64,000 nucleotides of DNA, taken from Candidatus Omnitrophota bacterium. Its GTDB lineage: Bacteria > Omnitrophota > JACPQZ01. The position numbers and the translations under genes are program-made. The notes below the pieces were generated by a model, which searched no databases, had not been told where the DNA came from, and saw only the letters and a program-made list of their open reading frames with translations. Every line of letters starts with the position of its first letter. Positions within the stretch are counted from its first letter, which is position 1. Of the stretch, positions 8,194 to 61,561 are shown one piece after another. Where the stretch lies: contig JACPQZ010000076.1 in the NCBI GenBank assembly GCA_016190205.1, positions 4,632 through 68,631 of the forward strand, read 5' to 3'.

Positions 8194-8361
8194 CTCCTTT
8201 TTTAGCTATGAGCTTTCAGCTTTCAGCCGACAGCTGATCGCTCCTTACCTATTAATTGTATTGTGAAAACTGATGCTGGCACTTCATTATACCAAAGCCC
8301 GTATCTTTTTCTATGATATAGTGCTACAATAACGACTCAACCAACTATGGCATAACGAGTA

Positions 8362-23711: not shown

Positions 23712-23792
23712 GAGAAATATTTACTGATCACCTCACGATATCCGTGTGCTCACGCCAGCGTACTTCAATGCCTTCGCGGGCTTCGATCACGA

Positions 23793-24281
23793 TCAATTTT
23801 GGTCTTTAATCTTCTCTTGAATCCTGCGCCTGGCGCGCTTATTAAACTCGGAAAAGGCCATGTCCATCTGCCGGTCTGAGATGACCACCCAACGTACCTT
23901 CCGGCTCCCGGCATAACGTTCAAACTCGCTCAACGTTTGGGCATCGGTCGGATTGACAGTCGCAGCCGTTAATGACCACTCATCCTGAAAGAGGGGTAAG
24001 CATCTCTTTTCAACCGCCAGCGTCGGATTCACCTTCTGGACCACATCCCAGTCTATTTGATCGAAAACTAAATTGAGATACGGGAGCTCGAATTTTTCCG
24101 ATAGTGCCTGGGCCAAATCGCTGTCTGAAATGATACTTCTCTTGAGGAGAATTTGACCTAAAAACTCGTGGGTTCTTTGCTGCTCCGCCAGCGCCGAAAT
24201 AAGCTGGATTTCATTGATCAATCCCCGATCACGCAGAATTTCCCCGATCTGCTTTTTATTTTTCTTTTGTTCAACAGTCAT
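23793..24281 (-). CDS. Standalone MshEN (T2SSE_N) domain protein, putative c-di-GMP receptor
   Basis: The N-terminus KQIGEILRDRGLINEIQLISALAEQQ fits the 24-residue MshEN motif RLGxxLLxxGLIxxxQLxxALxxQ. A second degenerate copy follows (FLGQILLKRSIISDSDLAQALSEK). Confidence 0.6.
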   Translation of the reverse strand: MTVEQKKNKKQIGEILRDRGLINEIQLISALAEQQRTHEFLGQILLKRSIISDSDLAQALSEKFELPYLNLVFDQIDWDVVQKVNPTLAVEKRCLPLFQDEWSLTAATVNPTDAQTLSEFERYAGSRKVRWVVISDRQMDMAFSEFNKRARRRIQEKIKDQN

Positions 24282-24412
24282 GGGGGGTCCTTTCGGGAGA
24301 CTTTATTATCTATTTTATTGCTTCATCAACTTTTCATTCGGTACCATCATTCGGTACCAGGTACCGGATAGGGTTTAAACTGGGTTTCACTGTCGTGCCA
24401 GGCACCGAAACT

Positions 24413-24943
24413 TCATCCAATATCCAACAGGTTCTTATAGCGCTTTAGAAATTGGCGGTCCTTGGGCCGACCGGCAATCTCTTTTGAGCGCAAAAGTTTT
24501 TCCAACCGACCCACCTTCACAGGTATCTGGTCTACCGTAAAAGTTGCTGCATCCTTGGCTAAATCCGAGAAGGGATAGCCTGACACCTTGAGCAATAATT
24601 CAATCATGACGCCATCCGGGGTGGTTGCTACAAGAGTGCGCTGCTCTTTGACGAGCCGCGCGAGACTGGCTGCCTCTAACTTTCCCTGCGCTGTGCCAAG
24701 GGAAAAACCCAGCGCCTCAAGATTTACAACCGCCTTTTTTACATTCGCCAGAGTGGGATCCAGAAATATATCATAATCCATCGTTGCAAACATTTCGGAA
24801 GGATTACGGGCGTAGTAATTAATGCCGGACATTCCCACCACCACATAACGCACGCCCTTGCGATTAAATTCATCCACCACCCTCTGGTACGGGTCTCCCC
24901 CCTCAATCTTATTTACCATACGGTCACGAACGCTTCTTGCCAT
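24413..24943 (-). CDS. Pol-beta-superfamily nucleotidyltransferase-fold protein (AbiEii/DUF6036-like toxin candidate)
   Basis: Carries the G-[GS]...D-x-D motif (VVGMSGINYYARNPSEMFATMDYDIF) and a C-terminal GRPKD segment. It overlaps the upstream HTH gene by about 20 nt. A paralog lies at 32024..32485. Confidence 0.5.
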   Translation of the reverse strand: MARSVRDRMVNKIEGGDPYQRVVDEFNRKGVRYVVVGMSGINYYARNPSEMFATMDYDIFLDPTLANVKKAVVNLEALGFSLGTAQGKLEAASLARLVKEQRTLVATTPDGVMIELLLKVSGYPFSDLAKDAATFTVDQIPVKVGRLEKLLRSKEIAGRPKDRQFLKRYKNLLDIG

Positions 24944-25268
24944 AGTGACGCTGCCATGCGAGCAAGGTCCTGTGAACCCAGGTCTTCTCCGCCCCGTCCG
25001 GGCTATCCAGATCCCGTGCGCGGACCCTGCCTAACAGCTCGGGTTGCTTAGAGAGGGAGCCTGCCTCAGCGGGCACGTTCTCTAACAAGTCGGAAGGACT
25101 TACTCCCAGAAAGGCGGCGAGTTTGGCCAAGGCGTGGAGCGAAACTGACCGCTTGCCCGAGTCCATCGCTGAGACGTTCGAACGGTAGAGCCCCAGGCTC
25201 CTGGCCACCTGTGAAGCGGTCCAGCCTCTTTCCCGGGCCACCTGCGTAATACGGGTTCGGATTGGCAT
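24924..25268 (-). CDS. XRE-family helix-turn-helix transcriptional regulator (antitoxin candidate)
   Basis: HTH segment ITQVARERGWTASQVARSLGLYRSNVSAMDSGKRSVSLHALAKLAAFLG. The probable start is the internal ATG at 25268. Confidence 0.65.
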   Translation of the reverse strand: MPIRTRITQVARERGWTASQVARSLGLYRSNVSAMDSGKRSVSLHALAKLAAFLGVSPSDLLENVPAEAGSLSKQPELLGRVRARDLDSPDGAEKTWVHRTLLAWQRHYGKKRS

Positions 25269-25302
25269 CTCTGTAATGTTATCATATACTGATAACAAAA
25301 GC

Positions 25303-25461
25303 AACTCATCTTATTTCACCTCATTCGGAGAAATGAGGACGGTCTTGCCGTTTTTCCATATCGCCAGCGGCCGGCCTGTTTTCTTATGCCGCTTAACCAC
25401 CTCCCGAACCGCTTTTTTCAGAGCCGCTTCAGCTTTATCCTGCAAAGACATTCTTTTTTTC
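25303..25461 (-). CDS. Small ORF (51 aa) immediately downstream of the zeta-toxin gene; possible partner protein
   Basis: Minus-strand ATG at 25461 gives MKKRMSLQDKAEAALKKAVREVVKRHKKTGRPLAIWKNGKTVLISPNEVK. It starts 3 nt after the zeta stop. It is not in the ORF track because it is under 60 aa. Confidence 0.3.
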
Positions 25462-25463
25462 AT

Positions 25464-26042
25464 TTACCGTCTCGCACTTCTTTGAACCATCGCAAATAAA
25501 TCATCGTTCATTATTTCTCTGTGACCGTTTCGTTTTTTCGCGATCAATACCGGCTTCGACTTGGAATTATCAAACAACATCCAGGAATCGAGCAATGGCT
25601 CATACAGGTTGGAAAAATTATCGAGGCCGCGAGTGAATCTTCTGCGCACGTCTTCCGCAGGCACATGATGGCCGCCTTCCGCCACCCGGTCTTTAATACG
25701 TGCGATCGCCAGTTCCGCGCTCGGAATCCAGAGAAAGAAAAGATGAACCGTATAGCCTTTCTTTTTTAGATCAGTGAGTAGAGTTGCGTAGGATTTACCG
25801 GATAAAGTCGTCTCAAATGCAAAAACAACGCCGCGCCTGGCGTATTCATGGATCTCATGAAGAACGAGCTTACCGGCTTTGATCGCCGCGGCGCGAGGCC
25901 CAAAGGGGGCCAGTCCTTGAGCGATGAGGTCTGCATTTACAAAATTCGGGCAATTCACATAATCCGGTAAGAACAGCCTCGCAAAGGTCGTCTTACCCGA
26001 TCCATTGGGTCCCGCAATAATGTAAACCGCTTTATGCTTCAT
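25464..26042 (-). CDS. Zeta-toxin family P-loop kinase (AAA-like)
   Basis: Walker A motif IIAGPNGSGKTT and zeta-toxin family architecture in 192 aa. Confidence 0.75.
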   Translation of the reverse strand: MKHKAVYIIAGPNGSGKTTFARLFLPDYVNCPNFVNADLIAQGLAPFGPRAAAIKAGKLVLHEIHEYARRGVVFAFETTLSGKSYATLLTDLKKKGYTVHLFFLWIPSAELAIARIKDRVAEGGHHVPAEDVRRRFTRGLDNFSNLYEPLLDSWMLFDNSKSKPVLIAKKRNGHREIMNDDLFAMVQRSARR

Positions 26043-26077
26043 AGTCGGCCTGTTCAGCCTTAGTGAACGGAGTCATG

Positions 26078-26107
26078 TCTTGCAAAATAATATGTGATAT
26101 TGCAAGA
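26078..26107. promoter_or_regulatory. Perfect 8-bp inverted repeat (TCTTGCAA-N14-TTGCAAGA) in the zeta-toxin promoter region; putative operator
   Basis: The sequence tcttgcaaaataatatgtgatattgcaaga lies 36 bp upstream of the zeta-toxin start codon. Confidence 0.45.
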
Positions 26108-26116
26108 CCTGACCCT

Positions 26117-26878
26117 TCACGCGAACTCACGTTTCCTGAAATGGATTCCCGTATTGTCCGTAGGCCTCAACTCGTGTTTGATCCCCCGCCTGAGCATAAA
26201 CTCATCCACCGCTTTCTTACAGCCCTTCCAATAGCAGTAATCGTCGATCACCACGTAGCCATCTGGAACCACTTGATCGTAGAGTTCCTCCAGACAAATT
26301 TTAATTGATTCATAGTAATCGCCGTCCAAGTGGAGCAATGCAATGTCACCCATTGCTTTCTTATGCGAGGGGATAGTTTCATGAAACCAACCCTTGACGA
26401 AATGACCACGGCCCGCCGGAAACCTCAATGTTTTGTATAAAAGGCCTTTGGCGATCGTTTCCGGAGCGGATAATGCCCCTTTAGGAAACGTTTCGCCACT
26501 GGCTGTTTCATCCAACGCAGAAGCGTCCGGTAAGCCCTGCCATGAGTCGAAAAGCCACACGTGCCTTTTCGGATGCCGGTTGGCGACGGTATGAAGGACG
26601 GCGGCGCTCCCACCCCGGCACACGCCAAACTCCGCGAAACACCCTTTGACCCGGTCCCGGTTTAATATGGTTCCCAGCTCGAACAGCGTCAACAGTCGCG
26701 GGTACGTCAACATCGTATACGGTTTGATCTTCAAAAAAAGGTTGATCTTGCCCAGTTTCCAAAGATCTTTCTTTGGAACGCCCCGGATAAAATGCCACTC
26801 TGAATTCAGACGCGTCAGGAGCAGGTTTCTCTTCACCCATGCCTTGATAGGTTTAACCATCTGGGTGCGGACATTCAT
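26117..26878 (-). CDS. TylF/MycF-family SAM-dependent O-methyltransferase
   Basis: Contains CFAEFGVCRGGSA, LHLDGDYYESI and DGYVVIDDY, motifs of the macrocin-O-methyltransferase family. Confidence 0.7.
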   Translation of the reverse strand: MNVRTQMVKPIKAWVKRNLLLTRLNSEWHFIRGVPKKDLWKLGKINLFLKIKPYTMLTYPRLLTLFELGTILNRDRVKGCFAEFGVCRGGSAAVLHTVANRHPKRHVWLFDSWQGLPDASALDETASGETFPKGALSAPETIAKGLLYKTLRFPAGRGHFVKGWFHETIPSHKKAMGDIALLHLDGDYYESIKICLEELYDQVVPDGYVVIDDYCYWKGCKKAVDEFMLRRGIKHELRPTDNTGIHFRKREFA

Positions 26879-27004
26879 AACTCATCTTTCGGTACCAGGT
26901 ACAAAAGTGCCACTTATATACTGATAACAAAAGCAACTCATCGCGATTTGGCGCCGCAGTCCGTACAATGACATCGAACCTGGTACCTATAGGTAAAAGT
27001 CATC

Positions 27005-27703
27005 TCAAGCCATATCAAACAATAGTAATTCCGCGTCACTAAGGGCGGCGATCGTTAAAAGCTTTTCCCCGCTGACTGCGGCGCCGTCGCTCTCCTTAAA
27101 CGAGACTCCATTGACTTGAACCGAGCCGCGGGCCGCCTGTATCCAGGCGTGACGGTACATGTCTATGGCATATTCCACCTTTTTGCCTTTTTCGAGGGAT
27201 GAGATATAGAGACTGGCATCCTGATGGATTTTTAGGGCGCCTGCGGACGGCCGGCCGGCCGCGGCAAGGCACAACCGGTTTTTTCGCAGCTCGGGCTTGA
27301 AAGCACGCTGCTCATAACCAGGCTTGAGCCCATTTTTCTCCGGCAAGATCCAAATTTGCAGTAAATGCACGGGGTTCGTCCGGGACGGGTTGAACTCACT
27401 GTGAGTCACGCCCGTTCCGGCACTCATGCGCTGTACTTCCCCGGGCCGGATGACTGCACCGCTCCCCATACTGTCCCTGTGTTCCAGCTCGCCTTCCAGG
27501 ATATAGGTTATGATCTCCATATCTCTGTGCCCGTGCGTGCCAAAACCCTTTCCGGGCTCAATCCGATCCTCATTGATGACCCGAAGGCACCTAAAACCCA
27601 TATGCTTGGGGTCATGATAATCAGCAAATGAGAAGGTGTGATAGGAATCCAGCCAACCGTGATTGGCATGACCCCGCTCACCGGCTTTTCTGATTTGAAT
27701 CAT
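27005..27703 (-). CDS. Pirin family protein
   Basis: Pirin N-terminal cupin motifs HGWLDSYHTFSF, GFGTHGHRDMEIITYILEG and THSEFN. Confidence 0.85.
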   Translation of the reverse strand: MIQIRKAGERGHANHGWLDSYHTFSFADYHDPKHMGFRCLRVINEDRIEPGKGFGTHGHRDMEIITYILEGELEHRDSMGSGAVIRPGEVQRMSAGTGVTHSEFNPSRTNPVHLLQIWILPEKNGLKPGYEQRAFKPELRKNRLCLAAAGRPSAGALKIHQDASLYISSLEKGKKVEYAIDMYRHAWIQAARGSVQVNGVSFKESDGAAVSGEKLLTIAALSDAELLLFDMA

Positions 27704-27752
27704 CGTTCATGCCTTTGAATATGCCGTTTTTACGGGCCGCTTTGCTTTCCAC

Positions 27753-28319
27753 TCATCGTAACCGCGTGAACGAAAACACGGCATCCGTATCCTTGGCCCC
27801 CTCCTTGTAACAATTCCAGGACTGGTTCATCTGACCACCCCCATCGGCCAGTGAGATCTCGAGACCATGCATGTGCTGCTCGTGGGCTACATCGATATCC
27901 GTGTCGGCGGCCAGTTGAAATTTCCAGTTTGTACCGGACGATTCGTTCAGCACCATGCGCGGCTGGTTGCCCAACATGCAGTAATGGGTCATTTCAAGCC
28001 TGCCCGCGCGGTCGTGATAGACACTTACCATCTCGCTTGGCGTCCCTACGCAAAATCGCTCCAGAAGAACAGAGCCTCCCGACGTAAGTTCATAGCGGAC
28101 CTTTACTTTTTCCTCTTTGCCGTCCTTGACAGATGTTCCTTCCCACTCGCCCACGAGCCCCTTCAGGCGCTCAAACTCTGCTGAGGAAGGAGGACGCGGC
28201 GGCATTTCCTCTTCCGCAGCCTTCGAAATAGCGCCCGAAAGCAAGGCGCTCAGAAATGATACAAGAATGATACGCGCAAACACGTTAACCTCCTTTACAT
28301 GCAGGTAACACTGTTTCAA
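27753..28319 (-). CDS. Secreted DUF1579-like protein
   Basis: Has a signal peptide and the segment GEWEGTSVKDGKEEKVKVRYELTSGGSVLLERF, consistent with DUF1579. Confidence 0.45.
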   Translation of the reverse strand: MKQCYLHVKEVNVFARIILVSFLSALLSGAISKAAEEEMPPRPPSSAEFERLKGLVGEWEGTSVKDGKEEKVKVRYELTSGGSVLLERFCVGTPSEMVSVYHDRAGRLEMTHYCMLGNQPRMVLNESSGTNWKFQLAADTDIDVAHEQHMHGLEISLADGGGQMNQSWNCYKEGAKDTDAVFSFTRLR

Positions 28320-28384
28320 GCCATGTTAAACAATAAAAACTCTCTAACCTTCATACTGAGTGCCTATTGTTTCACTTTATGAGC

Positions 28385-28496
28385 TCTGCATTTACAAAAT
28401 TCGGGCAATTCACATAATCCGGTAAGAACAGTCTCGCAAAGGTCGTCTTACCCGATCCATTTGTCCCGCGATGATGTAAACCGCTTTGTGCTTCAT
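28385..28496 (-). pseudogene. Truncated, frameshifted duplicate of the 5-prime end of the zeta-toxin gene
   Basis: About 130 bp at 28385-28515 are about 95% identical to 25930-26060, which is the upstream region plus the first ~37 codons of the zeta gene. The copy has a 1-nt deletion and substitutions and no continuation. Confidence 0.65.
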
Positions 28497-28549
28497 AGTC
28501 GGCCTGTGCAGCCCTGGCGAACGCTAGGATATAACACCGCCATGCGGGC

Positions 28550-28585
28550 GGGGTCGACGGGCGCCATACGCGCTTTCGCGCTACT
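28550..28585. repeat. 36-nt direct repeat, copy 1 (GGGGTCGACGGGCGCCATACGCGCTTTCGCGCTACT); its first 12 nt equal the tRNA-Asp 3-prime end
   Basis: 34/36 identity with copy 2 at 29672..29707. The two copies flank the yjbQ-tag segment. Confidence 0.85.
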
Positions 28586-28606
28586 TACCAGGTGCAAAAG
28601 TGCCAC

Positions 28607-29020
28607 TTAATTTCCCATCACCTTGACCACGACGCGTTTTTTGCGCTTGCCGTCAAATTCGGCGTAAAAAATCTGCTCCCAGGGGCCTAGATCCAGCTTC
28701 CCCCCGGTAACAGGCAGGACCGCCTGATGGTGAACCAAGGTGCGTTTGAGATGGGCGTCGCCGTTGTCCTCTCCCGTGAGGTGGTGGCGGTAGTCCTCGC
28801 GGAAAGGCGCGAGCCGCTCTAAAAGCTCCCATAAATCCTCCCACAGCCCTTCCTCGTTATCGTTCACCCAAATCCCGGCAGTAATGTGCATGGCCGAGAC
28901 CAGGCACATTCCTTCCTGGACGCCGCTTTTTTTGACGATCCCCTCGAGCTTGTCCGTGATATTGACCAGATCCCTGCGCTTGGGGGTGTTAAACCAAAGG
29001 TATTCGGTGAGGGTGGTCAT
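28607..29020 (-). CDS. yjbQ: YjbQ/UPF0047 family protein (secondary thiamine-phosphate synthase-like)
   Basis: Reads [50 protein letters not shown]..., typical of UPF0047. Confidence 0.7.
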
Positions 29021-29022
29021 GA

Positions 29023-29616
29023 TTATGGGTGCTGCACTTCGCGGTGTCTGAAACAACTGACAAGGTGATCGTTCACCATGCCTGTCGCCTGCATGTGGGC
29101 ATAGCAGATGGTGGATCCTACGAACCGGAAGCCTTTCTCCTTAAGGGCATGGCTCAAGGCGTCGGACTCTGACGTTCGCGCGGGCAAGTCTTTTAGAGAC
29201 CTGCGCTTGTTCTGGATGGGCTTGCCGTCCACAAACCGCCATATAAAGGAAGAGAAACTCCTTTCCTCTTTTTGAATCTTGAGAAAAGCCCGAGCGTTTG
29301 TGATCGCCGCTTCGATCTTGAGACGGTTACGGATGATGCCAGTATTTTGAAGCAACCGGCTCACGTCACGCCTGCCATAGCGGGCTATTTTCTCGGCGTC
29401 GAACCCATGGAAAGCCTTGCGGTAATTTTCCCGCTTTTTAAGCACCGTGAGCCAGCTTAAACCCGCCTGTGCCCCTTCGAGCACTAAAAATTCAAACAAC
29501 TTGCCGTCGTCATACAAAGGCACTCCCCATTCCCGGTCGTGGTAAGCTCGCATGAGGGGATCGGATTCAGCCCATTCACAGCGGTGGTTGGCAGACATGT
29601 ATCGAAATGAAGCCAA
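29023..29616 (-). CDS. tag: DNA-3-methyladenine glycosylase I
   Basis: Contains [45 protein letters not shown], a close match to Tag. Confidence 0.85.
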
Positions 29617-29671
29617 TTATCCTTACCAGGTACAAGAGTGCCACGTCGAATTGACGACGGGAAATAATTAC

Positions 29672-29707
29672 GGGGTCGACGGGCGCCATACGCGCCTTTG
29701 CGCTACT
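29672..29707. repeat. 36-nt direct repeat, copy 2 (GGGGTCGACGGGCGCCATACGCGCCTTTGCGCTACT)
   Basis: See copy 1 at 28550..28585. Confidence 0.85.
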
Positions 29708-29757
29708 GGCACTTCCCTGGCGTGCCAGGCACCGAAGGCCGAAGAGAAGAAAAGAAA

Positions 29758-29979
29758 TTAAGCTGCCTTCAACCCCTGCAACGTTCTTTTCCGAAATCCT
29801 ATGATGGTCAACCCTACCACTTCTTTTTTCTTTTGGTCGTAACGGACGATGACACCCTCTCCGATATCCACACCTACTGCGGGACGTGGTTTGCCGACGG
29901 AAATATAAAGGACATCGGCTTCCTCGTCGTATTCCCAATTCAATGAGCGTTTTCCCTCAAGAATTCTCAGCGCTTCCAT
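29758..29979 (-). CDS. DUF2283 family small protein (antitoxin-like)
   Basis: 73 aa with YDEEADVLYISV and VVGLTII segments, the DUF2283 pattern. It overlaps the upstream gene. Confidence 0.55.
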   Translation of the reverse strand: MEALRILEGKRSLNWEYDEEADVLYISVGKPRPAVGVDIGEGVIVRYDQKKKEVVGLTIIGFRKRTLQGLKAA

Positions 29980-30278
29980 ATTACCTCCCTCCTCTTCGAA
30001 AAGGAGCCCGCAAAATATGCTGTTAGAACAAATCCTTCTTGTCCGCCAGCCTCTTTGTAGGCAACCACCAAGTGCTTTTGCGTAAGGGGCGTTTTTGAAT
30101 AGAATCGCACGGCCAGCAACTCGCCGAAATCACCTTCCTGGATTAAATCAGGGTCTGAAATGGTTTCCACGACCCTATCCCTCTGACCCTCCATTTCCGG
30201 ATGGCGCCTCAGAATGTGCTCCCACCGCTCGCGCGTTAAGCGGATTGGGATCCCTTTCTTAGAATGAATAATAATCAT
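29967..30278 (-). CDS. Small protein paired with DUF2283 (DUF4258-like toxin candidate)
   Basis: 103-aa ORF overlapping the DUF2283 gene by 13 nt. It has the genomic arrangement typical of DUF4258/DUF2283 pairs. The family assignment is tentative. Confidence 0.4.
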   Translation of the reverse strand: MIIIHSKKGIPIRLTRERWEHILRRHPEMEGQRDRVVETISDPDLIQEGDFGELLAVRFYSKTPLTQKHLVVAYKEAGGQEGFVLTAYFAGSFSKRREVIWKR

Positions 30279-30430
30279 CTATCTAACTGAACCGGTTTAT
30301 TTCATCCACTTCCCAATGCGCGTATTTCGTATGCGCTCCAAGTGTCCCTGGCGTACCAGGCACCGACAATTTAATTTTCAGTTTTAGTGCCAGTTAAAAT
30401 GGAATTGTCGTGCGCTCCTGGCTCCAGAGT

Positions 30431-31258
30431 TTAAACTCCGGGGTTGTTATCAGTGCTTGGTACCGTGTTGCCGGGTACTGTATTTTTCCTTTCCGAAGAC
30501 CGGCGGTAAGGTTTTAATTCCTCATCACTTTGGTAATCTCTAATGATTTCGCGAACCCGTTGGCTTATTGAAGAGGAATCAGTTATAACTGGACCACGAG
30601 CGATTAACTTCCGCTCTTCTGAGAATGTGTTTCCGCTTTTATCTTTATAACAAACCGAAATAATTAGAAAAGGCGGCCTCTCAGGCTCAAATATACTCCC
30701 TTTCTCGGAAATTGGAATCTCACGTTCTTCTTCAGGAGCTATTATATAGTGGAATTTTGGTTGGCGCCCTTTCTTATAAATTTGGGAAATATGCTCACCA
30801 TCAACAATGTATGGGCGAGGAGCACTAAGATCAAAATATTCATGTACCCCTGTGATAGGATTAACAATCACGACCTCGGAATCTAACGCCTCGCCGGTAC
30901 CGATATTTTTTAGAGTTACTTTTCCAACGCCGTTTTCAATATCGACAATTTCATAGCGGCTTACAACTAATCGAGGCTCATATGAATCAGCGCGCTTGGA
31001 TGCAGTCACAACGAGGAGAATCGTAGAAATAAGTAAAGAGAGCAGTGCTGTTAACGTTGCTGGTTGCACATTTCCAAACCTGTCTCTCTCCCAGGAGAAA
31101 AAAATTATTATGCACGCAATCAGATAAATCCAGATCCAAGTTTTGATAGGAAGAGTATTCACAATAAGTGACGGTAGGAAAAAATAACCTGAAATGAAAA
31201 ATGGCAATGGTAGGAGTAATGATGCAACTAAGTGCCGCAATAAGGTCATTATTCCCAT
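30431..31258 (-). CDS. Hypothetical membrane protein in an AT-rich (foreign-looking) segment
   Basis: 275-aa ORF with N-terminal transmembrane helices. Local GC is visibly lower than its surroundings. Tandem GTTAACACA repeats lie in its upstream region. Confidence 0.45.
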   Translation of the reverse strand: MGIMTLLRHLVASLLLPLPFFISGYFFLPSLIVNTLPIKTWIWIYLIACIIIFFSWERDRFGNVQPATLTALLSLLISTILLVVTASKRADSYEPRLVVSRYEIVDIENGVGKVTLKNIGTGEALDSEVVIVNPITGVHEYFDLSAPRPYIVDGEHISQIYKKGRQPKFHYIIAPEEEREIPISEKGSIFEPERPPFLIISVCYKDKSGNTFSEERKLIARGPVITDSSSISQRVREIIRDYQSDEELKPYRRSSERKNTVPGNTVPSTDNNPGV

Positions 31259-31711
31259 ACCGACATTCTTGATAGGTGCGCTATTGTTAACACAATGTTA
31301 ACACAGGTCTATTTTATATAAGCAGGGAGTTATGGCTTAATCATCATTACCACTTCTGTATATTTAAAGTATGCATAACGGAGTCGACGGGATTTGGCGG
31401 TTTGGGCTCGCCACTTAGTCGATTACTCCTTCGGTTATCGGTGTTCGGTGCTCGGTTATCGCAAGAAAAAGAAATATTATGAGCCTTCAGCCGTCGGCTA
31501 TCTGCCTTGGGCTTTTGCTGATGGCTGATGGCTGATAGCCAACAGAGTTTGCGAGCACCGATAACCGATCCACGATCACCGAATCAAATGCTCGCCCAAA
31601 CTCGGCCACTCGCCGCGCCAAGGAAGGCGGTGCTCCCATATAGGTCGCACCGCATGTGTTGGGGGGCGCGGCTCACTTCAAATCCCGTCGACCTTTTGAC
31701 GGAAAAGAAGA

Positions 31712-31787
31712 CGGGGTCGACGGGATTTGAACCCGCGGTCTCCTGATCGACAGTCAGGCGCTTTAAGCCGGACTAAGCTACGACCCC
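31712..31787 (-). tRNA. tRNA-Asp (anticodon GTC)
   Basis: Reverse complement reads GGGGTCGTAGCTTAGTCCGGCTTAAAGCGCCTGACTGTCGATCAGGAGACCGCGGGTTCAAATCCCGTCGACCCCG. It folds as a cloverleaf with anticodon loop CTGTCGA. Confidence 0.85.
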
Positions 31788-32023: not shown

Positions 32024-32485
32024 TCACGAATAACCTGATTTTCTTTTCTTCACGATTCGCGCCAGATCCAGTTTGTCCTGCGGGCGTCCGCTTGCCTTTT
32101 TAGACAGTATGAGCTCATCGAGGCCCATGATGTTGATGGCGATTTTCCCATACCGGCTATGTCTCCGGTGTTTCCATGCCTCAATTGCAGAGACCCCCGG
32201 CACCTTAATCAAAATGTCCACTCTTACCGGCGCAATACCTATTTGAAGTATTACGGATTGATCCTGAAAATCACCCGGGCGCACCCCTTTCAGAGGAGCA
32301 CCATAGAACTTCAGGGCCTTGTAGACGCTGCGTGGATCGTTCAGTTCTGCCGGGATCCAGATGTCCAGATCTTTCGTAAATCGGGGCTCGGAATAAAATA
32401 TAACGGCGTGAGCGCCGATAACAAGATACTTGATCTTATGCGCGTTTAAGGCGCTGAACAGATCTTCGTAATCGGAGCTCGGCAA
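32024..32485 (-). CDS. Pol-beta-superfamily nucleotidyltransferase-fold protein, paralog of 24413..24943
   Basis: Contains YLVIGAHAVIFYSEPRFTKDLDIWI (G...D-x-D motif) and a C-terminal SGRPQDKLDL segment. It has the same architecture as the first nucleotidyltransferase gene. Confidence 0.5.
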   Translation of the reverse strand: MPSSDYEDLFSALNAHKIKYLVIGAHAVIFYSEPRFTKDLDIWIPAELNDPRSVYKALKFYGAPLKGVRPGDFQDQSVILQIGIAPVRVDILIKVPGVSAIEAWKHRRHSRYGKIAINIMGLDELILSKKASGRPQDKLDLARIVKKRKSGYS

Positions 32486-32633
32486 CTGGCTTCCCCCGCA
32501 TCTTCAGAAACGTACTGACCATAGCCCAAGCGGCTTCAAAACGCGCCGCCGCACCCGCACGCCGCCAAAACCACCGGTCAAACGCATCGGCTTCTTTAAA
32601 AGATTTCGACTTGTGAATCCATGTCTTGCTCAT
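32436..32633 (-). CDS. Small ORF overlapping the 5-prime end of the second nucleotidyltransferase gene (possible antitoxin partner)
   Basis: 65-aa ORF with a 50-nt overlap onto the downstream nucleotidyltransferase gene. No recognisable domain. Confidence 0.25.
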   Translation of the reverse strand: MSKTWIHKSKSFKEADAFDRWFWRRAGAAARFEAAWAMVSTFLKMRGKPVAELRLRRSVQRLKRA

Positions 32634-32803: not shown

Positions 32804-32959
32804 AGTAATCAGAACCAAATCCGGCCTCGTGAAGCGTCGATCGTGAAGACTATCTCACAACCCTGTAATAGAACCTCGCGCCGCTGCCCCTCGTAGCCGC
32901 ATCTTCCTGATACGAGATACGCTTCACGAGATACGAGATACGAAAATGTGGACAGCGTG

Positions 32960-35334: not shown

Positions 35335-35428
35335 GTAGTTATCACCTCTCTAAAGATGGCAATCGTGAGGGCAGATGGATTCGGCGGTTTGGCAGAGAAT
35401 CCATCTGCCCAATACATGTAAAGAACTC

Positions 35429-35502
35429 TGAGGGCAGATGGATTCGAACCATCGACACCCGCCTTAAAAGGGCGGTGCTCTACCAGACTGAGCTATGCCC
35501 CC
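35429..35502 (-). tRNA. tRNA-Lys (anticodon TTT)
   Basis: Reverse complement reads GGGGGCATAGCTCAGTCTGGTAGAGCACCGCCCTTTTAAGGCGGGTGTCGATGGTTCGAATCCATCTGCCCTCA. The 5-prime end abuts the frr stop codon. Confidence 0.85.
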
Positions 35503-48036: not shown

Positions 48037-48052
48037 GCAATCACCATGCCAA
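48037..48052 (-). promoter_or_regulatory. Candidate sigma-54 promoter (TGGCAT-N5-TTGCC) upstream of glnA
   Basis: The minus strand reads TGGCATGGTGATTGCC, with the GG/GC spacing of sigma-54 promoters. It lies about 280 nt upstream of the glnA start and 3-prime of the sigma-54 activator gene. Confidence 0.35.
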
Positions 48053-48103: not shown

Positions 48104-49676
48104 TCAGATGGAACTGACAATTTTGTATTTTTTGGCCTTGTAACCTAAAATGCGTTCCGTGATGCCCAGCATCTTCGCCGCGCGGCTTTGATTTCCCCGG
48201 CTCGTGTTTAAGGCTTCCTGGATGAGCCGGGCCTCCAAAGCCTTTACAGAATCCGTCAGACTCAACCGGCCCGCGTTCCCCTCATGAAACCGTTCCTCGG
48301 CATAGTGCGGCACAACCTTATGCCTTATGTTGGAGGGTAAATCCCTCCTGCGGACGACGTGACCCTCCGCCATCACCACCGCCCGCTCCATGCAGTTTTC
48401 GAGCTCTCTGACGTTTCCAGGCCAGGGGTAGGTGATGAGGACATCCATTGCGTCCTGGGCCGGGCGCTCTACCGCCTTCCCATGTTCCTTCCCGGAGCGG
48501 CTGATAAAGTAATCGACGAGCTCCGGGATATCCTCCCTGCGCTCCCTTAAAGGCGGAAGGTAGATGGTGATGACGTTCAGGCGGTAGTAGAGATCCTCTC
48601 GGAACCGTTTCTCCCGCACCTCCTGATCGAGGGGACGGTTGGTGGCCGCTATGATGCGCACGTCCACCTTGATGGTCTCGGTCCCTCCCACCCGCTCAAA
48701 TTCGCGCTCCTGCAGCACCCGCAGCATCTTCACTTGGGCGGCCAGCGTGAGATCCCCTACCTCGTCCAGAAAAAGGGTCCCCCCATGGGCGAGTTCGAAA
48801 CGACCGGGTTTTCTGGCGAGGGCCCCCGTGAACGCCCCCTTTTCGTAACCGAAGAGTTCGCTCTCGAGGAGGGTCTCGGGGATCGACGCTGCGCTTATTC
48901 TGACAAAGGGTCCGTCCGAGCGCGGGCTCATGTAATGGAGGGCGCGTGCAATAAGCTCCTTTCCCGTTCCGCTCTCTCCTAAAAGCAGCACGGTAGCCTT
49001 GGAGCGGGCGCATTGATGGACGACGCGAAAGACGTCCTGCATGGCGCGGCTGGACCCTATGATGTTCTCGACATGGTAGCGGGTCTTGAGCTGCCGGCGG
49101 AGATCTGTATTTTCTTCTTCCAACCTGACGTGCTCCGTACGGACCTGCTGCCTCAAACGGACCGCCTGGGCGATCATAGAGGCGATGGTCGCAAGGAGGC
49201 GAACGTCCTCCTGCAGAGACACGGGCTGCTCAAAGAGCCTGTCCACGCTTAGGGCCCCAATCGTCTTACCGGCATATTTGATCGGAACACAGATGAAGGC
49301 GATGGTCTGCCGGGAGAGATCTCCGCGGGACCGCGTCCGGTTTAGGAAAAGGGGTTCCTTCCCGATGTTGGGGATTGCGATCGGTTCGCCCGCCTCCACC
49401 ACCTTGCCCGTGATCCCCTCGCCCAGCTTATACCGGCCCCGCCGCATTTGCCGCCGGTCCATGCCCTTGGCCGCCTCGATCATGATCTTCTGGGTCTGGG
49501 GGTCCAAGAGCGTGAGTGTTCCGCGCTCCATGCCCATTTCCCGGGCGAGGATATCCAGCACCGAGCGCAGGACATCGAGCTCAAGCGAGGAGGCCAGGGC
49601 CTGGCTGATTGAATGCAGGACATTGAGCTCTTTAAGCCCCTGGCGTAACTCGCCGTTCTTAAGATGATCGGTCATT
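48104..49676 (-). CDS. Sigma-54-dependent transcriptional activator with an N-terminal GAF domain (NifA/NtrC-like)
   Basis: Sigma-54 AAA module ([21 protein letters not shown]) and a C-terminal Fis-type HTH. The start is set at MTDHLKNG (ATG 49676). The upstream in-frame extension translates the repeat element. Confidence 0.85.
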
Positions 49677-49691
49677 TTAACCTTAAATAAC

Positions 49692-50005
49692 TCTGTCCGT
49701 GATTCGTGTTTCGTGATTCGTGAAACGTAGTTGACGACTTGAGTAACCAGAAACCAGCAACCAGATACCAGAAGATTCCAGAGACCAGATACCAGAGTGA
49801 TACGATAAAATTCGAAATACGAAACTCGAAGCACGAAGCAAATTCGAATGACCGAAATTCAAAACTCGAAAACGGTTGTTTTGAATTTCTGATTTCGAAT
49901 TTCTAACTTGCTTCTAATTTCGATCTTCGAATTTCGTATTTTTTCTGGTTACTGGTATCTGGTATCTGGTTTCTTTTTTTCACGATTCACGATCAACGAT
50001 CCACG
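49692..50005. repeat. About 310-bp composite palindrome built from three families of tandem hexamer repeats arranged A-B-C|C-prime-B-prime-A-prime
   Basis: Left arm: (CGTGATT/TCGTGAA)n, then (AACCAG/ATACCAG)n, then (TTCGAAA/ACTCGAA)n. The centre is near 49875. The right arm holds the reverse-complement families (TTCGAATTT..., CTGGTATCTGG..., CACGATTCACGATC...). Confidence 0.85.
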
Positions 50006-50008
50006 AAC

Positions 50009-50824: not shown

Positions 50825-50910
50825 GCGTGTGTGATTCGGGATCCGGGAAGCGGGAACAGGGAACCGCCACCGCTTCCCGCTTCCCGTTTCCCGGTTCCCG
50901 AACCGTCGTT

Positions 50911-58377: not shown

Positions 58378-58464
58378 AGTAACCTCTATCAGCTTTCAGC
58401 TTTCAGCTATCAGCTATTAGCTATCAGCTTTCAGCTAACGGCTGAAGGCTGAAGGCTGACTTCG

Positions 58465-58920: not shown

Positions 58921-59043
58921 CGATCGTTCTTCGTTCATCGTTCTTCGTTCTTCGTTCTTCGTTCGACAACCCGGGTATTTGACATGGATTTCATTTTTTT
59001 GCTGTTACGAAGCACGATGCACGATGAACGAAGCACGTCGTGC
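58921..59043. repeat. Dyad-symmetric hexamer-array element (CTTCGTT/CATCGTT)n ... (CGAAGCA/CGATGCA)n between rplI and rpsR
   Basis: The tandem array cgttcttcgttcatcgttcttcgttcttcgttcttcgttcg is mirrored by cgaagcacgatgcacgatgaacgaagcacg around a ~45-nt core. Confidence 0.8.
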
Positions 59044-61438: not shown

Positions 61439-61561
61439 ACTGCCCCTCTATGACTTTCGCGGGATTCGCGTTTCGTGATTCGGGAATCGGGAACAGGGAA
61501 TCAAAACCTTTTTTCAGCGGTACCCGCTTCCCGGTTCCCTGTTCCCGTGTCCCGGACACGG

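Follow-up and report, generated by a model that had tools for sequence, protein, structure and literature searches.

A ~30-nt inverted-repeat element at module junctions of a tRNA-Asp-linked mosaic island in an Omnitrophota bacterium: a possible recombination sequence

A stretch of 64,000 nucleotides from Candidatus Omnitrophota bacterium (assembly GCA_016190205.1, contig JACPQZ010000076.1, positions 4,632 to 68,631; hereafter the window) contains a small low-GC island in which short palindromic repeats centered on CCWGG recur between genes. What are these repeats, and why do they stand at the borders of the island's genes? The initial annotation of this locus described two families of repeats and proposed three roles for them: operators for the island's helix-turn-helix (HTH) regulators, recombination sites that delimit cassettes, or methylation targets. 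The analysis described here, in which the repeat region (24.2–30.6 kb) was read directly and the copies were also checked by pattern search, suggested that both families belong to a single element, named R, and that the second of the three roles fits best: R lies at nearly all junctions of compositionally different modules, the borders of duplications coincide with it, and copies of the 3′ end of a tRNA-Asp gene occur at two of the junctions. We tentatively read R as a sequence recognized by a recombination system acting in trans, a reading to which we give somewhat less than an even chance.

R is an element of ~30 nt with the form YTTCGGT-RCCWGGYAC-(0–4 nt)-AAAGTGCCA, in which an outer block (YTTCGGT) is followed by a palindromic core (RCCWGGYAC) and an inner block (…AAGTGCCA). 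All of the copies first reported were found in the sequence where they had been placed, and none of them is expected by chance. Family 1 (TACCAGGTRCAARAGTGCCAC) occurs exactly at 26893, 28586, and 29624 on the plus strand, with no further match in the window at up to three mismatches and 0 expected in shuffled sequences. Family 2 (CGTRCCAGGCACCGA) occurs exactly at 24394, 29721, and 30352, with 0.25 matches expected at up to two mismatches, and its conserved block of ~30 nt is longer than had been recognized. The palindrome GTRCCWGGYAC, which is common to both families, occurs exactly five times in the window, each time in an island spacer, and has 14 matches when one mismatch is allowed compared to 1.8 expected. 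Two details required correction. First, the shorter palindrome TACCWGGTA, said to be present in each family-1 copy, is imperfect in the copy at 28586 (TACCAGGTG). Second, the related palindromes reported near 24352 and 26979 exist, each one base away from the position given, as GGTACCAGGTACC at 24353–24365 and ACCTGGTACC at 26978–26987.

The distinction between two separate families was not upheld. The best non-self match of a hidden Markov model (HMM) built on the three family-2 copies is the opposite strand of a family-1 copy, at 26887–26913. Furthermore, the plus strand of the family-1 copy in spacer S3 aligns to the minus strands of the three family-2 copies with identities of 22/30, 22/29, and 23/33, which are above the scores obtained in the wrong orientation; the difference is modest, the core being a palindrome itself. 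Judged from these comparisons of sequence, the two families are probably one ~30-nt element present in opposite orientations, forward (family 2) and reverse (family 1).

Eight full or partial copies of R are found in five spacers (S1, S3, S5, S6, and S7; Table 1), all between open reading frames (ORFs) within 24.3–30.4 kb, in agreement with the earlier remark that the repeats lie at gene boundaries. Pattern and HMM searches revealed no credible copy in the other ~58 kb of the window, which include ~55 other intergenic regions. The placement of the copies relative to the genes is regular. Forward copies, on the gene-sense (minus) strand, follow stop codons by 4–65 nt in S1, S6, and S7 and, as a partial copy, in S3, and reverse copies precede the next start codon by 12–25 nt in S3 and S6 and, as a partial copy, in S1. 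The reverse copy in S5 lies immediately after the UPF0047 gene, whose stop codon it supplies. Inverted pairs of R enclose centers of 12 nt (S1), ~66 nt (S3), and ~68 nt (S6), which are unrelated to one another.

Table 1. Copies of R and associated features of the island (coordinates are those of the window)
Feature	Position	Strand	Location and remarks
Low-GC mosaic island, ~8 kb	23750..31711	-	Modules of one or two genes each; minus strand throughout
Partial R, reverse (outer half and palindrome GTACCAGGTAC)	24334..24366	+	S1; preceded by tandem duplication of TCATTCGGTACCA
R, forward (family 2)	24381..24411	-	S1; begins 4 nt past the stop of the nucleotidyltransferase toxin gene; nhmmer E = 1e-7
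R, reverse (family 1)	26886..26917	+	S3; ends 12 nt ahead of the TylF-like methyltransferase start; inner end adjoins D17
D17, 27 nt	26916..26942	+	Exact copy of the HTH antitoxin promoter/half-operator region 25284–25310; joined directly to the inner end of R in S3
Partial R-like arm (TATAGGTACCAGGTTC), forward	26974..26994	-	S3; 10-bp inverted repeat with the copy at 26886–26917
Truncated duplicate of the zeta-toxin-like ATPase gene (5′ end and 27 nt upstream)	28379..28523	-	146 nt, beside S5; original at 25924–26069
D4, copy 1	28549..28585	+	S5; 37-nt repeat; first 13 nt CGGGGTCGACGGG = tRNA-Asp 3′ end
R, reverse (family 1)	28582..28610	+	S5; inner end provides the TAA stop of the UPF0047 gene; outer end adjoins D4
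R, reverse (family 1)	29620..29648	+	S6; upstream of the tag (3-methyladenine glycosylase) gene
D4, copy 2	29671..29707	+	S6; 95% identical to copy 1; same 13-nt tRNA-Asp block
R, forward (family 2)	29707..29739	-	S6; downstream of the DUF2283 gene; inner end adjoins D4
Degenerate reverse-type copy (GAAGTGGATGAAATAAACCGGTTCAG)	~30287–30312		S7, after the forward copy; by eye only, 14/25
R, forward (family 2)	30338..30370	-	S7
Direct copy of the tRNA-Asp 3′ end, 17/18	31379..31396	+	Inverted copy at 31677–31694
tRNA-Asp (GTC)	31712..31787	-	Island begins at its 3′ end

The island itself is a mosaic. All genes between 21.3 and 35.3 kb lie on the minus strand, and the GC content is 41–55% over ~23.75–31.7 kb compared to 55–60% in the flanks. 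GC content at third codon positions ranges from 0.355 to 0.73 among the island modules compared to 0.64–0.80 in neighboring core genes, and adjacent modules differ from each other. Eight small modules, unrelated to one another, can be distinguished: (1) a protein with an MshEN domain; (2) an HTH antitoxin with the nucleotidyltransferase; (3) a 50-aa protein with the zeta-toxin-like ATPase; (4) the TylF-family O-methyltransferase; (5) a secreted protein with a pirin; (6) tag with UPF0047; (7) a PBECR-like protein with DUF2283; and (8) a low-GC membrane protein.

Several duplications end exactly where R stands. In S6, the repeat D4 adjoins a forward R at that copy's inner end; in S5, it meets a reverse R at the outer end. 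The repeat D17, which lies upstream of the TylF-like methyltransferase gene and carries the left half of the palindrome TTATCAGTATATGATAA found at the HTH antitoxin gene, is fused to the R of S3, and an exact 13-nt tandem duplication (TCATTCGGTACCA, twice) at 24334–24359 runs up to the base at the center of the palindrome in S1. As the borders of D4, of D17, and of the tandem duplication all fall at R, the element coincides with places at which the island was cut and rejoined. A separate observation concerns the truncated duplicate of the zeta-toxin-like gene, which differs from its original at few positions, four of them within a 15-nt cluster; there the duplicate has the sequence CGCCAGGGCTGCAC and thereby resembles R.

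The second line of evidence comes from the tRNA-Asp gene, which belongs to a tRNA-Glu/Val/Asp cluster with frr-pyrH-tsf-rpsB beyond it. The island abuts the 3′ end of this gene, and elements within it are bounded by direct repeats of that end, a sign of tRNA-linked islands that is subject here to a caveat from tRNA-Lys (see below). The block CGGGGTCGACGGG within D4 is the exact last 13 nt of tRNA-Asp in direct orientation, with homology ending exactly at the discriminator base, and in S6 the likeness to the sequence downstream of tRNA-Asp continues (~23/28 positions including the 13-nt core). The 17/18 copy at 31379–31396 is likewise direct and stops at the discriminator base. In addition, an inverted copy of the tRNA-Asp 3′ end of 17 bp is found at 31677–31694. 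Where site-specific integration has occurred repeatedly at a tRNA gene, direct partial copies of the tRNA are classically left between modules. The distance from these 13-nt blocks to copies of R is 22–26 nt. In both S5 and S6, one side of the tRNA block has a copy of R at 24 nt (the D4 arm), and in S6 the opposite side has a second copy at 26 nt. The two D4 copies enclose a unit of 1,122 bp consisting of R, tag, UPF0047, and R, as expected from an insertion that recombined within the 13-nt block.

The reading that we tentatively favor is that R is a junction, recognition, or crossover sequence of a trans-acting recombination system and that the island was built by accretion at tRNA-Asp. R would be recognized by a recombinase or transposase whose gene lies elsewhere in the genome, and the action of this enzyme would have joined, duplicated, and reshuffled the modules. 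A dimeric protein may bind the palindrome, and strand exchange might take place at or beside the palindrome or within the 13-nt tRNA block. Newer modules would insert near the tRNA gene, and older junctions would decay. Such a history would resemble the stacking of elements without an integrase at a tRNA gene; the junctions share the general layout of attC sites, in which a variable center stands between conserved inverted ends, but fall outside the attC definition. The distribution of the PBECR-like/DUF2283 pair is of interest in this regard. Elsewhere, this pair is a stand-alone two-gene insertion, in two contexts inspected that were both unrelated, and no R was found in the flanks of the 70%-identical pair in genome L041, the only one with flanks scanned. 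The presence of the pair elsewhere without flanking R indicates that the element belongs to the island's junctions and not to its modules. The tag and PBECR-like proteins have their best homologues, at 70–74% identity, in diverse phyla.

However, a number of observations weigh against the recombination reading. First, Pfam scans detected no recombinase, transposase, or integrase domain in any ORF scanned across the window, and domain scans found no integrase gene or remnant in the island. Second, no excision or presence/absence variant was observed, as the public contigs that carry island proteins, which are short Logan contigs from two runs, all have the same arrangement. Third, comparative support is lacking: the closest relative is only ~53% identical for a flanking protein, and the eight copies of R are in one genome. 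The protein in question, of 670 aa, is identical to HYY14_07215, and its next-best homologue is 53% identical. Fourth, the R of S5 is in the "wrong" orientation for a simple model of paired sites, and junctions S1, S3, and S7 are without the 13-nt tRNA block. The prior for the 13-mer match is modest: by our own estimate, ~0.5 chance 13-mer matches would be expected to any part of the four tRNAs of the window and ~0.004 to an exact 3′ terminus in direct orientation. Finally, tRNA-Lys, which lies in a core context, is followed (region 35366–35446) by its own 3′ end as an inverted copy at 35397–35410 and as an exact 17-nt direct copy at 35366–35383, which together form a strong hairpin (z = -3.8). 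Because tRNA-Lys has such copies without an island, tRNA 3′-end copies need not be integration scars in this genome; those of tRNA-Lys and the inverted copy of tRNA-Asp could represent either a terminator built from the tRNA end or the footprint of a lost element.

A stronger version of the recombination reading can be formulated, in which the island is a non-canonical, integron-like capture array in Omnitrophota. Its cassettes of one or two genes would be separated by attC-like sites with the conserved inverted ends TTCGGTRCCWGGYAC…AAGTGCCA in place of RYYYAAC/GTTRRRY, primary attachment would take place at the tRNA-Asp 3′ end, and the joining would be done by a recombinase encoded at an unlinked locus. 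We consider this version rather unlikely. No paper on Omnitrophica integrons was found in a literature search. If R is a recombination site, cassette capture in an uncultivated phylum would join tRNA-anchored accretion of integrase-less modules with attC-style junctions whose sequences are unrelated to those of known integrons, and would represent a further route, beyond classical integrons, for gathering very small gene modules. R is unusual in form, and its description rests on eight copies in a single genome. If R is a genome-wide repeat of the repetitive extragenic palindrome (REP) type, the finding is an ordinary one.

This last possibility is the main rival explanation. R would then be a selfish or structural intergenic repeat, similar to REPs and the bacterial interspersed mosaic elements (BIMEs) composed of them, to the paired REP elements known as REPINs, or to miniature inverted-repeat transposable elements (MITEs), and it would be mobilized by a transposase encoded elsewhere without delimiting cassettes. 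Such an origin is possible, although we hold it to be clearly on the unlikely side. Consistent with it, R is strictly intergenic, forms inverted pairs across short linkers, and, as in BIMEs, is interspersed with other short repeat modules (D4 and D17). Direct repeats resembling target-site duplications are found at two pairs (TGAAGT/TGAAAAGT in S1 and GATGACTT/GATGAGTT in S3), and the start of D4, GTAG and then a GC hairpin, is reminiscent of a REP. A REP unit is an imperfect-palindrome hairpin with a 5′ GT(A/G)G; in R, the 11-nt core is a loopless palindrome, GTGG stands at the inner end, and the unit hairpins are inconsistent between copies.

R also appears private to its lineage, as REP-like repeats are, with matches in genomes, metagenomes, and viruses at chance level. 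A search for the R motif in 596 Gb of species-representative genomes, which did not contain the source genome, returned 28 single matches in unrelated taxa compared to ~35 expected by chance. Outside the searched motif, the flanks shown for three of these have nothing in common with R, and GTRCCWGGYAC is absent from all matched loci. Two matches in Joint Genome Institute (JGI) metagenomes have flanks unrelated to R and surroundings that read like coding sequence, their ORFs being unchecked. Viral contigs gave four matches for family 2, three of which have one identical flank, and one for family 1, with unrelated flanks and no clustering of the motif. No match to spacer S6 was found by blastn among plasmids and phages.

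Other observations are difficult to reconcile with a REP-like repeat. The ~55 other intergenic regions of the window are without R and carry hairpins of heptamer tandem repeats instead, and within the window R is restricted to the island, while acquired islands are normally without host REPs. Single R units fold weakly. With respect to MITEs in particular, inverted ends are present, but S1 and S3 alone have flanks reminiscent of target-site duplications, S6 having none, and the interiors of the pairs are unrelated between copies, unlike those of MITE families.

Another explanation is that the repeats arose passively, through local segmental duplication and gene conversion in a decaying island, and have no sequence-specific function. 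Palindromes are hotspots for slippage and template switching, and other duplicated pieces are indeed present in the island, including the 146-nt copy of the zeta-toxin-like 5′ end, D4, and D17. This explanation is nonetheless improbable: the copies of R have unrelated flanks on both sides and are thus not parts of larger duplications, their placement relative to stop and start codons is regular, and both orientations occur.

R could also be regulatory, serving as the operator of a dimeric transcription factor, as a promoter element, or as an intercistronic RNA stem-loop or terminator. The 11-bp palindrome has the shape of a dimer binding site, reverse copies stand 12–25 nt upstream of start codons, and every spacer permits long-range pairing through CCWGG. 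However, forward copies are found downstream of genes, no T-rich tails are present at R as would suit a terminator, and fold z-scores are only -0.5 to -2.1, with one of +0.8, RNA folds being no better than DNA folds. No Rfam match for R was obtained; at gathering thresholds, only four tRNAs were matched in the window. The sequence TGGCAC in the reverse copies resembles the -24 box of sigma-54 promoters, yet all three reverse copies read TGGCAC-N5-(T/C)ACC and are without the -12 GC of the GG-N10-GC pattern (TGGCAC-N5-TTGCW). The more specific proposal of operators for the island's HTH regulators was not supported either. The sole HTH gene of the island, at 24924–25271, has no R upstream and has a different palindrome at its promoter. 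Collectively, we regard a regulatory role as having little likelihood.

Some features near these candidates deserve mention on their own. Upstream of the HTH antitoxin gene, at 25272–25310, a promoter-like TTGCTT-17-TAACAT overlaps the palindrome TTATCAGTATATGATAA, which is probably the operator of this gene. A strong hairpin unrelated to R is found at 26072–26113 (GTCATGTCTTGCAAAAT / ATATTGCAAGACCTGAC; DNA fold z = -5.2), between the methyltransferase and zeta-toxin-like genes; it could serve as either an operator or a terminator. A canonical sigma-54-type site (TGGCATGGTGATTGCC; TGGCAT-N5-TTGCC) is located at 48051–48036 on the minus strand, ~280 nt upstream of glnA and beside a GAF/sigma-54 activator gene (48104–49834).

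That the spacers are true attC sites of an integron whose cluster lacks its integrase (CALIN) is very unlikely. The arrangement as such is suggestive: the modules are co-oriented, consist of one or two genes, and are rich in toxin-antitoxin pairs, and the junction sites of 62–141 nt have conserved inverted ends and variable centers. For example, S1 (~62 nt), S3 (~106 nt), and S6 (~120 nt), with their inverted R copies and unrelated centers, all fall within the total length of 57–141 nt taken for an attC-like layout. However, no RYYYAAC-N40-140-GTTRRRY site with complementary ends and inner arms turned up in a scan of both strands of the window, the ends of R being TTCGGTRCC / GGYACCGAA, and no IntI was found in the scanned ORFs. 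Single-strand folding is weak and no stable attC hairpin is formed, with DNA fold z-scores of -1.9, -0.5, +0.8, -1.7, and -1.8 and centroid structures that differ between sites. Finally, it is highly improbable that the repeats are Dcm-type methylation or EcoRII-like restriction targets, as the core does hold CCWGG, but this motif is over-represented rather than avoided in the window (276 compared to 165 expected) and not specific to the island, the conserved block of ~30 nt is far longer than a methylation site, and domain scans found no DNA methyltransferase or restriction gene in the island, its only methyltransferase being the one of the TylF O-methyltransferase family.

Two further observations were made around the island. 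Between tRNA-Val and tRNA-Glu, at 32024–32633, lies a second nucleotidyltransferase gene that is 24% identical to the island copy and is accompanied by an overlapping 65-aa ORF; the pair looks like another small toxin-antitoxin-like insertion, placed inside the tRNA cluster. In addition, many core intergenic regions contain tandem arrays of 7-nt units (e.g., CGTGATT, TCAGCTW, CTTCCCG, and TCGTTCT), which are often inverted and would form long hairpins. Such arrays are found at 8200–8227, 31430–31456, 31517–31536, 32909–32943, 49698–50006, 50837–50900, 58386–58459, 58924–59037, and 61480–61555, and none lies inside the island spacers.

Compared to known systems of repeats and mobile modules, R and its island combine likenesses with several of them. 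First, R shares with REP/BIME, REPIN, BOX, and MITE repeats its short length, its extragenic and lineage-specific occurrence, the alternating orientation, and varied linker motifs. It differs from them in that, as far as the window shows, it is known from one island only, its units are not strong hairpins, the interiors of its pairs are unrelated, and no transposase, including the REP-associated tyrosine transposase (RAYT), was seen in the window. Second, integron arrays and attC sites, including those of CALINs, resemble the island in their short co-oriented cassettes, many of which encode toxin-antitoxin pairs, and in inverted ends that are imperfect around centers variable in length and sequence; one site here also overlaps a stop codon. 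The island is different in having no RYYYAAC/GTTRRRY ends, a weak hairpin, no IntI, and a link to a tRNA gene rather than to attI. Third, in composites of the staphylococcal cassette chromosome (SCC), pseudo-SCC elements without ccr are found in tandem at rlmH, and integrase-less modules are similarly stacked at one site with short direct repeats and nearby inverted repeats. The target gene and the repeat sequences are others in the Omnitrophota island, and no serine recombinase was identified here.

Fourth, the island can be compared to accretion at tRNA genes, as in tycheposon arrays with their remnants and in the cis-mobilizable elements (CIMEs) and integrative and conjugative elements (ICEs) of Streptococcus. 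The modules described here are very small in comparison (one or two genes, 0.7–2.3 kb), no integrase or fragment of one was found in the 64 kb, the block from the tRNA, of just 13 nt, is present at two of the five junctions, and this block is flanked by an additional inverted-repeat element, R, which is not described for those systems. Elements of tandem tycheposons are separated by partial tRNA copies (10.1101/2020.12.28.424599). The Omnitrophota island likewise lies at a tRNA 3′ end, has direct partial copies of the tRNA between modules that are without an integrase of their own, is mosaic in composition, and has junctions that look more decayed farther from the tRNA gene.

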